Assembly: GCA_016186825.1 (NCBI GenBank)
Contig: JACPKW010000006.1
Location: forward strand, 3,191 to 67,190
Direction of reading: 5' to 3'
Source of the DNA: Candidatus Giovannonibacteria bacterium
GTDB taxonomy: Bacteria; Patescibacteriota; Minisyncoccia; JACPKW01; UBA11713
Length of the DNA: 64,000 bases
Made by a program: the position numbers and the translations under genes. Positions 15,270 to 37,736 of the stretch are shown here, piece after piece (within the stretch, counting starts at the first letter, position 1; every line of letters starts with the position of its first letter). Under the pieces are notes generated by a model that was not told where the DNA came from, searched no databases, and saw only the letters and a program-made list of their open reading frames with translations.

Positions 15270-15292
15270 ATTTAAGTTTTTTTAATCTTCGG

Positions 15293-15483
15293 AGGCCATG
15301 GCGGGACTCGCACCCGCGTATAGCGGTTTTGCCCGCCTGCCAGAGCTTGAGGCCTGGGAGGGATTCGAACCCTCGTATATGGGTTTTGCAGACCCATGCC
15401 TTACCTCTTGGCTACCAGGCCATATTTGCTCAGGCCGATTGCGGGCAGGCAGACCGCCGCGTTAGCTTCTTCGCCACATGGCC
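15293..15483 (-). tRNA. candidate interrupted/split tRNA (Gly-GCC-like) whose anticodon loop contains tRNA-Cys
   Basis: 5' part 15448-15483: GGCCATG-TG-GCGA..ACGC-G-GCGGT-CTGCC; 3' part 15293-15330: AA-ACCGC-TATAC-GCGGG-TGCGAGT-CCCGC-CATGGCC-T; acceptor 7/7 and anticodon stem 5/5 complementary; D/T loops non-canonical. Confidence 0.4.
15350..15421 (-). tRNA. tRNA-Cys (GCA)
   Basis: GGCCTGG/CCAGGCC acceptor, loop CTGCAAA, GGTTCGAATCC. Confidence 0.85.
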
Positions 15484-31248: not shown

Positions 31249-31293
31249 ACACAAAACTAAAATTGCCCATGATGGGCAATTTTAGTTTTGTGT
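31249..31293 (+). terminator. perfect 22-bp-arm palindrome (hsp20 terminator)
   Basis: ACACAAAACTAAAATTGCCCAT-G-ATGGGCAATTTTAGTTTTGTGT, directly after the stop codon. Confidence 0.6.
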
Positions 31294-31389
31294 GCCGCGG
31301 GGGTGATCGGTCACATGTTGGCTTCGCCACTCGCGACCCCGCCTCGCGGTCGCCTCCGGCGACATCGCTCCGGCTTTCGATTCACCACG

Positions 31390-31477
31390 CGAGCGAAGCA
31401 GTTCGCTCGCTCCCACGGCAAAATTTCTTCGCGCGAGCGAAGCAGTTCGCTCGCTCCCACGGCAAAATTTCTTCGAA
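31390..31477. repeat. 2 x 44-nt tandem repeat each with GCGAGCGAA-GCAG-TTCGCTCGC hairpin
   Basis: two identical units in tRNA-Phe trailer; not CRISPR (only 2 units, no cas). Confidence 0.6.
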
Positions 31478-32205: not shown

Positions 32206-32322
32206 ATGCGCAGTATTCTTGAATTAGTCCGAACCCCGGTAGTAAAGCAAAGCTTACTACGGGGCACGGCGCATTTCGCCGCCTGCGGCGGCGAGCCTGC
32301 CTGCCGGTAGGCAGGTTTGGCG
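32206..32322. repeat. island repeat module copy (hairpin motif + CCTGCCTGCCGGTAGGCAGG palindrome) immediately downstream of paralog P1
   Basis: GCAGTATTCTTGAATTAGTCCGAACCCCGGTAGTAAAGCAAAGCTTACT..GGGG shared with 35183-35260; palindrome shared with 35443-35462 and R repeats. Confidence 0.55.
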
Positions 32323-32330
32323 GCAAATTC

Positions 32331-33021
32331 TTATTGGATAAATTTAAAACTTCCAACCAATTCTTCAAAAGCAGCATTATCAAAAATCTCACCCCGTTTA
32401 TTCATTTTTATGGTTATGCCTTCAATCTTATCTCCTCCGCGTAAATACTTTAACGCCGTAATTGGTATGTATACCACCTCTAGAATTTCGTCACTACCAA
32501 TATTTTGTTCTGTAAACCGTGTCGCTTGCATACCACTCACAAGAACCACTTCCCGAAAATTAGATGAAGCTTTTCTTCCACGATCTTTCATTTTTCCAGC
32601 CAGTTCCTTTATTGAATCAATGCTTACTGGTATCGGATATATTTCAATGCTGTTTTGTAGTGAAGTTTGTGCTAAAGAAGGGGCGAAGAATAGTTCTTCC
32701 GATTTTGCTGCTTGTTGTGCTCCGGTTAGAAAACGCAGTTCTTCATTCCTATCATTTTTTGTGACAAGAACAAATTCAGCATTTTCATCGGCAAAATTGG
32801 TAATTGGATTTGGTCCAGTCGTATTCATAAACTTTGTGTAATCCAATGCAACTCGATAATTTTTCGGCAGAGAAAATGTATAACCCAATCTATTATTTAT
32901 GTAACTCGTTTTTTGTTCTGTGGTCGTGTTCGGTGTTTGAATGTCATTATCGCTCCCCCCTTTTTTTGTTAAGAACAGATAACCTCCAATTCCAAGCACG
33001 ACAATAACAAGTAGTATTATT
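32331..33021 (-). pseudogene. paralog P1 of anchored secreted-protein family; canonical ATG replaced by ACG (possible pseudogene or rare start)
   Basis: upstream in-frame codons encode ..T-NQKGFAKILIILLVIVVLGIGGYLF.. matching MNQKGFANI.. N-termini of P2-P4, but ATG->ACG; ORF-track start is internal GTG at 32999. Confidence 0.45.
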
Positions 33022-33083
33022 AAAATTTTAGCAAATCCCTTTTGGTTCGTATTGATAAAAATTTAAGTCAATGATTAAAAAAT

Positions 33084-33206
33084 TTTTCTTTTCCCCAAAA
33101 TTAAAATATGGTTCGAGCCGACCCGCCTGCATCAGCTATGCTGAAAGCATTGCGGGCAGGTGTTTTTCTATGGGTTCTTTACCTACCGGCAGGCAGGTTT
33201 GGCGGC
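33084..33206. repeat. R repeat copy R1 (5'-leader/intergenic module)
   Basis: TTTTCCCCAAAATTAAAATATGGTTCGAGCCGACCCGCCTGCATCAGCTATGCTGAAAGCATTGCGGGCAGG..CCTACCGGCAGGCAGGTTTGGCGGC; near-identical to 33972-34095 and 37383-37500. Confidence 0.6.
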
Positions 33207-33336
33207 ATTCAATCAAAAATTCGTAGAGCGAATACTTAAAGAATATAAGATTATGACAAAAATTTCAATTTCAAAAAAAGTACGAGCCCCAAGCAGAATT
33301 GAATTCCACGAGGGGCTCGAGTGGTCACCGACGCCG

Positions 33337-33819
33337 TTAGGCGAAGATTTCGGTGGCGTAGCGCTTGGAAAAGAAACGGAACTTGATCCGGTCGAGCATG
33401 GTAAGCGTCGCCTTGCCCCACCGCGCGAGGTTCACGAACACGGTGCCGTCGTTCGAATCCATGAAGTCCTTGAACTGGTAATCCACCGGGTCGCCCTTGT
33501 GGAACTCGAGGACGACGTCCCAGCCGTCCTCAATCGCCTGCATGCCAGTGAATATGCCACAGCGAGTGGTACTGCTGAACTGGATGAACTTGTCGCCCTG
33601 CTCGCTAGTCATTCGAACATCCACCATCTCGCACATCGCGCCGTACTTGCGGATCGCCTCGTCGATCGAGATCGTCCGCCCCTTGCCGGGAGCCCACCGC
33701 AGACCCGCCAGTTGTCCATCGTCGTAGATGTTCATCTGGAAAAGCGGCATAGGGTGACCCTTGAGGTTGAGAAACTCCTGGGCCTTCTTGAGCCCGCCGA
33801 GTGTAGGTTTGTAACCCAT
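33337..33819 (-). CDS. GC-rich foreign hypothetical protein (160 aa) occupying a paralog slot
   Basis: local GC ~60% vs ~40% genome; strong SD GGAGGG 7 nt upstream of ATG; own terminator GAGCCCC..GGGGCTC+T7 at ~33262-33305; balanced aa composition whereas + strand ORF 33160-33993 is antisense-like. Confidence 0.55.
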   Translation of the reverse strand: MGYKPTLGGLKKAQEFLNLKGHPMPLFQMNIYDDGQLAGLRWAPGKGRTISIDEAIRKYGAMCEMVDVRMTSEQGDKFIQFSSTTRCGIFTGMQAIEDGWDVVLEFHKGDPVDYQFKDFMDSNDGTVFVNLARWGKATLTMLDRIKFRFFSKRYATEIFA

Positions 33820-33971
33820 AACGGTTCCCTCCTTTCAATGTGCAGTTTGATTCCATCCAAGCACCATGCCTGGATTTCCTGCTATCCAACCATAATAGGA
33901 CTTGTGTGTCAAGCGCAACAAAAAATCACCATCTCTGGTGTTTCTCATTTCTTAACTCTTTGGATTAAAAA

Positions 33972-34170
33972 CTTTTCTTTCCCCCAAAATTAAAATATGG
34001 TTCGAGTCGACCCGCCTGCATCAGCTATGCTGAAAACATTGCGGGCAGGTGTTTTTCTCCAGGTTCCCTGCCTACCGGCAGGCAAGTTTTGCGGTTTTTA
34101 TCAGCGCGAACATCTTTATCATATCACAAACAACATTCCTTTCCCAATCTGGTGCAGTATTCTTGAATTA
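33972..34170. repeat. R repeat copy R2
   Basis: same module as R1/R5 plus tail ..CTGGTGCAGTATTCTTGAATTAGTCCGAACCC. Confidence 0.6.
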
Positions 34171-35126: not shown

Positions 35127-35260
35127 TTTTCTTCCCCAAAAATTAAAATATGGTTCGATATTCTTAGTATAGCATTATTTTTGCAGTATTCTTGAATTAG
35201 TCCGAACCCCGGTAGTAAAGCAAAGCTTACTGCGGGGCATGGCGCATTTTGCCGCACCGA
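35127..35260. repeat. R repeat copy R3 (variant)
   Basis: TTTTCTTCCCCAAAAATTAAAATATGGTTCGAT + GCAGTATTCTTGAATTAGTCCGAACCCCGGTAGTAAAGCAAAGCTTACTGCGGGG. Confidence 0.5.
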
Positions 35261-35477
35261 TGCTTGCCCCGTACCAATCCTAAGCAAGAACTCGGCAATG
35301 GTAGTATGTAAGCCGAAGGCGATATCGCGAGATAAACTTAGATTTTAGAAGCGATATATTTGGGATTGGTGCGGGGACAATTTTCCCGCCGCATATTTAA
35401 AATTTTAGAAGGCGGGATCCCGTTAAAAACGGTGACAAGTTTTTCCCTGCCTGCCGGCAGGCAGGTTTGGCGGCAAA

Positions 35478-37382: not shown

Positions 37383-37560
37383 TTTTTTCCCCAAAATTAA
37401 AACATGGTTCGAGCCGACCCGCCTGCATCAGCTATGCTGAAAACATTGCGGGCAGGTGTTTTTCTCCAGGTTCCCTGCCTACCGGCAGGCAGGTTTTGCG
37501 GTTTTTATCAGCGCAAACGTCTTTATAATATCACAAACAACATTCCTTTCTAAACTGGTG
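37383..37560. repeat. R repeat copy R5, fused at its distal end to a tRNA 3' half
   Basis: same module as R1/R2; ends ..AAACTGGTG|CCCCCGCCAAGAATCGAACTTGG. Confidence 0.6.
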
Positions 37561-37736
37561 CCCCCGCCAAGAATCGAACTTGGATCTACTCCTTACCTGC
37601 CCACCGTTGCCTGCGCCCTCGGCAGGAATCGAACCTACATCTAGGGCTTAGAAGACCCCTATTCTATCCATTGAACTACGAGGGCAACTTAGGCAGGTGG
37701 GGAAGGGAGCTATTCTATCCGTTGAACTACAGGGGC
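37556..37736 (-). tRNA. candidate interrupted/split tRNA (Arg-like body) whose anticodon loop contains tRNA-Arg(TCT); CCA encoded
   Basis: 5' half 37701-37736: GCCCCTG-TA-GTTC-AACGGATA-GAAT-A-GCTCC-CTTCC; 3' half 37556-37592: AA-GGAGT-AGAT-CCAAG-TTCGATT-CTTGG-CGGGGGC-A-CCA; acceptor 7/7 (one G.U), anticodon stem 5/5 (one G.U); canonical D and T loops. Confidence 0.45.
37614..37685 (-). tRNA. tRNA-Arg (TCT)
   Basis: GCCCTCG/CGAGGGC acceptor, loop CTTCTAA, TTCGATT T-loop. Confidence 0.85.

Follow-up and report, generated by a model that had tools for sequence, protein, structure and literature searches.

A GC-rich single-gene cassette in a pilin-like array of a Giovannonibacteria genome, probably acquired long ago from a GC-richer relative

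Introduction

An open reading frame (ORF) of 160 amino acids (aa), at 33337-33819 on the minus strand of a 64,000-nt stretch of contig JACPKW010000006.1 (Candidatus Giovannonibacteria bacterium, assembly GCA_016186825.1; hereafter the window), lies together with its own control regions in the coding-sequence slot of a paralog, within an array downstream of pilB, pilC, pilM and pilN. This cassette is real, is foreign in composition to the genome that carries it, and is losing GC. According to the explanation that we favor, to which we assign a probability of about 0.68, it is a self-contained single-gene cassette that was acquired long ago from a GC-richer relative within the candidate phyla radiation (CPR) and has since been inherited and recombined.

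The genomes of CPR bacteria are tiny, and the cells, which are thought to be episymbionts, possess type IV pili suspected of DNA uptake. To our knowledge, gene gain in these bacteria is poorly documented. The cassette would offer a clean case, spread over several genomes, in which a whole expression unit has moved between CPR lineages that differ widely in GC and has replaced a member of a surface-protein array, and in which the directional decay of the sequence measures the time since arrival. Events of this kind are known, and new details come from the cassette family, from the orphan protein, and from the associations with tRNA genes and array repeats. Three features in particular invite further work: an orphan family with a confidently predicted, unmatched fold, a strong Shine-Dalgarno sequence kept in genomes that almost never use one, and a recurrent tRNA link that could point to a capture mechanism. 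Should these leads fail, an ordinary horizontally acquired hypothetical gene is left.

Results

The cassette takes the position of a paralog coding sequence

The minus strand of the window carries a type IV pilus cluster that runs from 46.3 to 38.1 kb and comprises genes for a PilB-like ATPase and PilC, small ORFs, PilM, PilN and an ORF of PilO size. Next comes tRNA-Arg(TCT) and then, from 37.6 to 32.2 kb, an array of five units; more widely, the 160-aa ORF has type IV pilus genes, tRNAs, a valyl-tRNA synthetase, PrsW and Hsp20 as neighbors. Every unit of the array opens with a repeat, here called R, which is absent elsewhere in the window and whose 3' end has the form TCGAACCATATTTTAATTTTGGGG...TTTTAATC. 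Five copies of TCGAACCATATTTTAATTTTGGGG are found, all between 33.1 and 37.4 kb; four of these precede paralogs that have a prepilin-like N-terminus (MNQKGFANI..) and a hydrophobic helix, and the fifth (33982-34005) precedes the 160-aa ORF, which stands in its unit in place of a paralog. We infer from their N-terminus that the paralogs are pilin-like; a Pfam search returned no pilin match for them.

The limits of the replacement can be drawn closely. On the left, the cassette begins no more than ~10 nt from the R end, and on the right it ends at GCCGCCAAA, an element that comes directly after the stop codon in paralogs B and E (and, in a diverged form, after that of A). Because the two junctions fall at the R end and at GCCGCCAAA, the cassette occupies the exact position of a paralog coding sequence. 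A first-pass annotation of this DNA had placed an ORF of 160 aa in one slot of a paralog array; the ORF is present as quoted there, with an ATG start, and the slot is borne out. The protein starts MGYKPTLGGLKK and, compared with the array paralogs, has neither a prepilin-type N-terminus nor a hydrophobic N-terminal helix, and the ORF and the paralogs have no repeat family in common.

The composition of the gene is foreign to its host

The coding sequence has a GC content of 0.578 and a GC content at third codon positions (GC3) of 0.81, against a GC content of 0.429 for the window. Measured over 100 nt at a time, GC is 54-64% across 33300-33800 and 23-45% in the flanks, in keeping with the high local GC described earlier. 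Codon usage, once computed, is not host-like: host ORFs (n = 48-63) have a mean GC3 of 0.42 (standard deviation 0.06, maximum 0.54), which places the gene at a z of ~6.6. The gene is also a GC3 outlier at another locus, L007 (z 9.4), and forms a GC-rich island at loci L008, L009, L014 and L015. Among in-group copies GC3 ranges from 0.78 to 0.89, and the in-group consensus has a GC3 of 0.89.

The ribosome-binding site is likewise at odds with the host, as the first-pass annotation had observed. A GGAGG motif is found between -20 and -4 in just 2 of 63 host ORFs, 49 of the 63 have no Shine-Dalgarno-like 3-5-mer, and host start codons are preceded by AT-rich sequence. In Parcubacteria more generally, an anti-Shine-Dalgarno motif is detectable in only 48% (PMC9297842). 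The non-coding control regions of the cassette are AT-rich and have been co-inherited with the gene.

The junctions recur in independent assemblies

Close copies of the gene, with 86-88% protein and ~88% nucleotide identity, are found at L007 (from Rifle), L014 and L015 (both from Hainich), L008, L009 and L010. They are GC-rich islands (GC 57-61%) in contigs of 40-45% GC that were assembled independently from other samples. Both AT-rich junctions are kept in L007, from the Rifle aquifer, and in L014, from the Hainich aquifer, and the downstream junction only is kept in L015; across the junctions, identity between the window and these three loci is 76-96%. The R 3' end also occurs in L007, L014 and L021. 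In L008 and L009 the cassette lies in unrelated contexts of 43-45% GC. Gene neighbors differ in nearly every locus, and each window or locus has a single cassette copy.

With regard to artifact, the first-pass annotation had raised the prospect of a chimeric assembly. This would mean that GC-rich DNA of another organism had been fused into an AT-rich contig. The contig does belong to a metagenome-assembled genome, and the compositional step is sharp at both ends. However, the same AT-rich flanks, diverged by 4-24%, recur in contigs from other sites, islands of the same gene lie in other AT-richer surroundings, the exact window protein (MBI2610223.1) is found on three contigs (NCBI and Logan), and the AT-rich leader and tail are conserved along with the coding sequence. 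We therefore regard a chimera as so improbable that it can be set aside.

The cassette is a complete expression unit

Aligned across seven contexts, the common unit starts at the -35 element and ends just past the terminator, a length of ~650 bp. The features of the window copy, together with the R repeat before it and an overlapping antisense ORF, are as follows, in the direction of transcription.

33962-34143, minus strand: copy of the R repeat, the 5' element of the array unit, ending TTTTGGGGGAAAGAAAAGTTTTTAATCC (repeat families D1 and D4).
33917-33940, minus strand: upstream hairpin CACCAGAGATGGTG followed by ATTTTTTGTT (hairpin 33940-33927, T-run after it), from a terminator scan (fold -11.3 kcal/mol, z -3.9).
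33884-33912, minus strand: sigma-70-like promoter, with -35 TTGACA (33912-33907), a 17-nt spacer ending TGG and -10 TTGGAT (33889-33884), from alignments.
33855-33875, minus strand: conserved stem-loop ATCCAGGC ATGGT GCTTGGAT at or near the transcript 5' end, from RNAalifold and single-sequence folding.
33827-33832, minus strand: Shine-Dalgarno sequence GGAGGG, 7 nt 5' of the ATG.
33337-33819, minus strand: coding sequence, ATG start, 160 aa plus stop (MBI2610223.1, annotated as a hypothetical protein).
33273-33318, minus strand: intrinsic terminator, GAGCCCC-TC-GTGGAAT-TCA-ATTCTGC-TT-GGGGCTC (33318-33284), then GTAC and T7 (33279-33273).
33198-33272, minus strand: AT-rich tail of 75 nt, common to L007, L014 and L015, ending GCCGCCAAA (33206-33198).
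33160-33993, plus strand: antisense ORF of 277 aa, in the exact reverse-complement codon register of the 160-aa ORF.

The upstream hairpin is terminator-like and probably keeps read-through transcription out of the cassette. Hairpins of differing sequence abut the -35 element in L007, L008, L014, L015, L016, L017 and L021. The predicted promoter pattern, TTGAC(A/T)-17-TGnTAnnnT, is of the extended -10 type and is kept across loci. At the -10 element, relatives have TAGGAT or TAACCT and the window has TTGGAT, so that the window copy has lost the most conserved A, at position 2; a scan with the consensus missed the window promoter because of this T, and this copy may be expressed more weakly. 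The leader stem-loop has nine pairs, three of them with compensatory double changes (RNAalifold, 11 loci), and the sequence around the Shine-Dalgarno motif, GGAATCAAACTGCACATTGAAAGGAG, is almost invariant among close relatives. The GC-rich terminator with its T7 tract, also described in the first-pass annotation, forms a two-part hairpin of -24.6 kcal/mol (z -3.3; 0 of 200 shuffles fold as well) and is kept, with G-U and compensatory changes, in L007, L008, L009, L014 and L015. Within the AT-rich tail, a promoter-like TTGAAA-17-TATTCT (33268-33240) faces the next array unit. As read from these motifs, the expression signals suggest strong autonomous expression in the style of a phage 'moron'.

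The 277-aa antisense ORF was considered as a gene and rejected, given its exact reverse-complement register and the purifying selection on the sense frame. It is a by-product, because only sense TTA, CTA and TCA codons could interrupt it and a GC3-rich gene avoids these. Equivalent long antisense ORFs are found in L007, L015 and L021, and neither of the antisense translations is present in the protein collection.

The cassette is old and is decaying toward the composition of its hosts

Close copies differ by a synonymous divergence (dS) of 0.29-0.56, so that the acquisition is neither recent nor private to this genome. Earlier, the cassette had been read as horizontally acquired and swapped into the array; the foreign composition and the paralog slot agree with this, and what falls away is any recent or private event, given the age of the close copies and their other contexts. 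With regard to the direction of change, singleton changes at third positions on terminal branches comprise 37 from GC to AT and 3 from AT to GC, and all copies are thus decaying toward AT, the signature of amelioration. The ratio of nonsynonymous to synonymous divergence (dN/dS) among close copies is 0.12-0.23, which marks the gene as coding, functional and under purifying selection.

In a neighbor-joining tree, the in-group is sister to L011 (Kaiserbacteria, host GC 59%) and L020 (host GC 40%), and the next clade out holds L016 (host GC 57%) and L022 (host GC 39%). Host GC values are thus interleaved on the gene tree; the sampled contigs have no marker genes in common. A GC-richer CPR donor is suggested by the nearest outgroup copies, which include ones in genomes of 57-59% GC. 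Identity is also mosaic along the cassette: compared with L007, the window has 94-96% identity over the terminator and tail and 89% over the coding sequence, and its leader is of the L008/L015 type, which implies recombination among variants.

Taken together, these data suggest the following course of events. An ancestor of a 40-45% GC, Giovannonibacteria-like group would have acquired the cassette from a GC-richer CPR relative. Entry would have occurred by recombination rather than by an enzyme that the element encodes, with conserved sequences, for example tRNA genes or array repeats, as possible homology anchors. Later, the cassette would have been inherited and exchanged among relatives while drifting toward host composition.

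Several points weigh against this account. Most prominent is the one-sidedness of GC3. Among loci where host GC3 could be estimated, the gene lies far above its host in every AT-rich host, distant family members included (0.64 versus 0.39 in L020, 0.68 versus 0.34 in L022, and 0.33 versus 0.24 in L013) and never clearly below it in GC-rich hosts, a pattern that transfer and amelioration alone do not predict. The GC3 of the in-group ancestor, 0.89, also exceeds that of the sampled GC-rich hosts (0.68-0.72). A GC-rich reservoir or a gene-specific force may account for this. In addition, a distant homolog, that of L013 (53% identity, host-like GC), has pilMNO-tRNA-Arg(TCT) on one side and tRNA-Val(TAC) on the other, like the window copy, and this common neighborhood might be that of an old resident locus. 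A conflict of the gene tree with the host tree is suggested by host GC and context only, and no donor genome was found. No mobility enzyme or target duplication was found. Finally, with TTGGAT as its putative -10 element, expression of the window copy is not assured, and the functional guess made below has neither direct support nor a fold or family match.

Some of these points would be expected if the gene were instead native and long resident, its GC-rich codons upheld by a gene-specific force so that no foreign origin is needed. Such a force could be selection, whether for very high expression or for mRNA stability, or it could be GC-biased gene conversion via frequent recombination. The one-sided GC3, expression signals that all look optimized, the neighborhood held in common with L013, and the recombination evident from mosaic identity speak for such a gene. 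However, substitutions at 37:3 show that its GC is not at equilibrium, regions over the highly expressed GroEL/GroES genes in L007 reach only 39-50% GC, and G-ending and C-ending codons are both enriched in the gene, unlike the usual outcome of translational selection. Its distribution is also extremely patchy, with different neighbors among close copies. On balance we consider a native gene unlikely, though to be taken seriously.

The cassette encodes a protein of a small CPR family

The first-pass annotation recognized no family for the 160-aa protein, and we found no Pfam, NCBIfam, PADLOC or PDB-sequence match to it; the best PHROGs match (E 0.009) is a family of uncharacterised role. The protein does, however, belong to an uncharacterised family with at least 35 homologs (43-88% identity). 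The family accounts for about 66 clusters in a searched set of 1.84 billion representatives and is present in 3 of 185,579 GTDB species representatives. Its named members are all CPR (Kaiserbacteria, Zambryskibacteria, Parcubacteria/Paceibacterota and Pacebacteria), and it is a small orphan group confined to CPR/Patescibacteria. The family N-terminus, MGYKPTLGGLKKAQEFL, is nearly invariant, and two further motifs are ARWGK and FP..YA..F; G135, K136 and Y154 do not vary, and Arg133 and Trp134 hardly do.

An AlphaFold2 model (predicted local distance difference test score 89.6, predicted template modeling score 0.86) depicts the product as a soluble alpha/beta protein, in which residues 41-107 form a core predicted to run in beta-alpha-beta-beta-alpha-beta order. 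Foldseek searches, run on the whole model and also on its isolated core, returned nothing significant in PDB or BFVD, and no RNA recognition motif (RRM). Profile comparisons with RRMs were marginal (RBM5 RRM profile, E 0.04; hhalign against a small RRM alignment, P 0.07), and given these scores and the lack of fold-search support we did not adopt an RRM or ferredoxin-like assignment. The 160-aa protein has no signal peptide. Some remote homologs have N-terminal transmembrane anchors, then basic residues before the domain, an arrangement that puts the domain at the cytoplasmic side of the membrane. A C-terminal DUF7768 is fused to one family member (P0038). A second apparent fusion, in P0092, was rejected as a spurious Calx-beta match, and apparent tandem family paralogs in L025 and L026 were rejected because the adjacent genes are unrelated to the 160-aa family.

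Our best guess, held with low confidence, is that the protein is a cytoplasmic, membrane-proximal accessory acting on an envelope, pilus or phage-resistance process. Among neighbors of family members, genes related to the envelope are frequent (LD-carboxypeptidase, sortase, M23 peptidase, Mur ligase and a surface-sugar gene cluster; L009, L020, L022, L023 and L024), which may reflect mere insertion into variable surface loci. The next gene downstream in L014 (1271-1789) and L026 (1668-2126) resembles, by eye, a cell-wall protein with a 3D domain; that in L014 has no Pfam match.

The cassette family recurs beside tRNA genes

In 5 of 17 distinct loci, a class II tRNA gene (Leu or Ser) is found upstream at a distance of 118-285 nt and in the same orientation. 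By a post hoc estimate that takes ~5% of genes to follow a tRNA gene, this linkage far exceeds the chance expectation. In L017, a 23-nt duplicate of the 3' end of tRNA-Ser abuts the -35 element, and in L008 and L021 remnants of tRNA 3' ends are followed by a common GAAAGGAAATTGCAA trailer. The R repeats of the window bear a related mark, as they begin directly after '..GCACCA', a sequence resembling a tRNA 3' end (34151, 36264 and 37550, minus strand). Similar trailers with the same TTTTGGGGGAAGAAAAATTTTTAATCC end follow real tRNA genes in L007 (7716-7860), L016 (4157-4260) and L021 (1-160). An attachment (att) remnant, a promoter block and an RNA are candidate identities for R; against Rfam, at gathering scores and with E up to 5, it returned tRNAs only.

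The first 1051 nt of L021 (1-1051) hold a tRNA 3' end, an R-like trailer, and then a hairpin and promoter-leader block homologous to that of the cassette. This block precedes two unrelated, GC-rich (55-62%) ORFs for membrane proteins of 100 and 145 aa, and the 160-aa family gene follows both, with a leader of its own. From its sequence the region looks like two consecutive GC-rich cassettes.

The tRNA linkage could be accounted for if the cassette were the cargo or remnant of a mobile element that targets tRNA 3' ends, either a moron of a CPR phage or the att-proximal end of an integrative element. The class II tRNA genes upstream, the tRNA-Ser duplicate in L017, the tRNA remnants in L008 and L021, and the R units that begin after GCACCA all agree with such cargo, and the anatomy fits the published definition of a moron (PMC3594210). 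Nonetheless, no relative was found in IMG/VR, among GenBank phages or among plasmids, and neither the leader motif nor the R-end motif occurs in IMG/VR. Integrases and phage genes do not figure among the Pfam families catalogued or scanned for the larger loci (L001, L004, L006, L007, L020 and L022-L024) or for the window genes scanned from 30 to 46 kb. Target-site duplications or att repeats bracketing the cassette are likewise missing, save for the tRNA-Ser 3' duplicate upstream in L017. We judge mobile-element cargo to be improbable.

A further alternative takes the unit itself for a minimal autonomous mobile element on the plan of IS200, with the 160-aa protein as a new recombinase or transposase. 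The ~650-bp unit with a hairpin at each end, the upstream one terminator-like, its structured leader, the invariant Tyr154 and Lys136 with the nearly invariant Arg133 and Trp134, and the recurrence beside tRNA genes would all suit such an element. The single copy per window or locus does not, and the dS between copies means that there has been no recent transposition. Moreover, the protein lacks an HUH motif, matches neither a Y1 transposase family nor a recombinase family, and gave nothing significant in fold searches. Hairpins at the left end vary in sequence from locus to locus, and the promoter-leader block of L021 drives an unrelated gene. An autonomous element thus seems very improbable.

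Finally, the cassette might exemplify portable one-gene expression units of Paceibacteria, which would combine a common promoter, 5'-hairpin and Shine-Dalgarno block and be housed either directly behind tRNA genes, most of them class II, or in slots framed by R with 5' ends that resemble tRNA 3' ends, with the L021 block driving unrelated genes. If this were true, the 'pilin array' would be an integron-like capture site served by a recombination mechanism of a new kind, and the persistently high GC of the cargo would derive from a common GC-rich reservoir or from a gene-specific force such as biased gene conversion. Such a system is a speculative prospect to which we give little weight. The one-sided GC, the tRNA linkage, the reusable block and the L013 neighborhood, which old acquisition from a GC-richer relative leaves unexplained, nevertheless give some weight to a native gene and less to a capture system.

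Other features of the array and its tRNA genes

Within the array, the paralog at 32331-32999 (minus strand) retains the conserved N-terminus (.NQKGFAKILIILLVIV) in its start region (33000-33050), with ACG at the start-codon position and a stop five codons upstream of it; the ORF listing puts the start at an internal GTG. This paralog is either a pseudogene or has an unusual start. A 20-nt perfect or near-perfect palindrome, CCTGCCTGCCGGCAGGCAGG, lies within GCCGCCAAA|GAAAAAC at 32296-32315, 34067-34086, 35446-35465 and 37474-37493. It behaves like a small inserted palindromic element, since the homologous sites of L007, L014 and L015 are without it. A second hairpin insert, CCCCGTAGTAAGCTTTGCTTTACTACCGGGG, is found in two copies of the D5 repeat (32210-32282 and 35183-35255).

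The window has 18 tRNA calls, each of them on the minus strand; the ARAGORN call of a selenocysteine tRNA at 15291-15384 is probably false, as it overlaps tRNA-Cys. What looks like a tRNA-Gly(UCC)-like gene, split in the anticodon loop (37550-37736, minus strand), has a 5' half GCCCCTGTAGTTCAACGGATAGAATAGCTCCCTTCC and a 3' half ending GGAGTAGATCCAAGTTCGATTCTTGGCGGGGGCACCA. Its acceptor and anticodon stems pair, the intact tRNA-Arg(TCT) (37613-37685) lies between the halves, and an R repeat starts right after the CCA of the split gene; the split gene was called neither by ARAGORN, with or without introns allowed, nor by Rfam. In a patch of 50-54% GC upstream of tRNA-Phe, 31249-31293 and 31381-31468 hold a perfect 22-nt inverted repeat (1-nt gap) and a 44-nt tandem duplication containing the hairpin GCGAGCGAAGCAGTTCGCTCGC.

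Discussion

The cassette can be set beside four known systems. Phage morons are independent transcription units added to phage genomes (Cumby, Davidson and Maxwell 2012, PMC3594210). Like them, the cassette is a single gene with its own predicted promoter and factor-independent terminator and a GC content unlike that of its neighbors, lodged between resident genes or substituted for them, and spread horizontally. Unlike them, it lies in a chromosomal pilin-like array with no phage genes nearby and no match in viral collections, and whereas characterized morons confer superinfection exclusion, virulence and similar traits, any role of the cassette is a low-confidence guess.

IS200 is a minimal insertion sequence with a terminator hairpin at its left end and a leader that occludes the ribosome-binding site. 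The cassette is similar in size, in its single ORF of ~150-160 aa, in its upstream terminator-like hairpin and in its structured leader. A test of the 160-aa protein for IS200/IS605 membership gave no Pfam match, no conserved His-x-His and no significant fold match. The cassette is not IS200-like, because it has no Y1/HUH transposase signature or fold and because its copies are single and old.

With integron cassettes, the array shares one-gene units in series and slots framed by repeats, one of which holds an unrelated gene. Integron cassettes are normally promoterless and end in an attC site recognized by IntI, whereas the cassette here has a putative promoter and a canonical terminator. The other slots of the array hold paralogs, a better fit to tandem duplication. 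There is no integrase among the genes scanned from 30 to 46 kb, and no attC, an absence judged without a covariance-model search. With a promoter of its own, and with neither an attC nor an integrase seen, the unit does not qualify as an integron cassette.

The remaining comparison is with the concept, due to Lawrence and Ochman, of horizontally transferred islets of ORFans undergoing amelioration. Here, too, GC3 is atypical, distribution is patchy, and drift proceeds from GC to AT toward the host. The cassette departs from such islets in that the GC3 of the family is at or above that of the host in every locus where it can be estimated, which simple amelioration would not predict, and in that its AT-rich control regions have been co-inherited with the gene.

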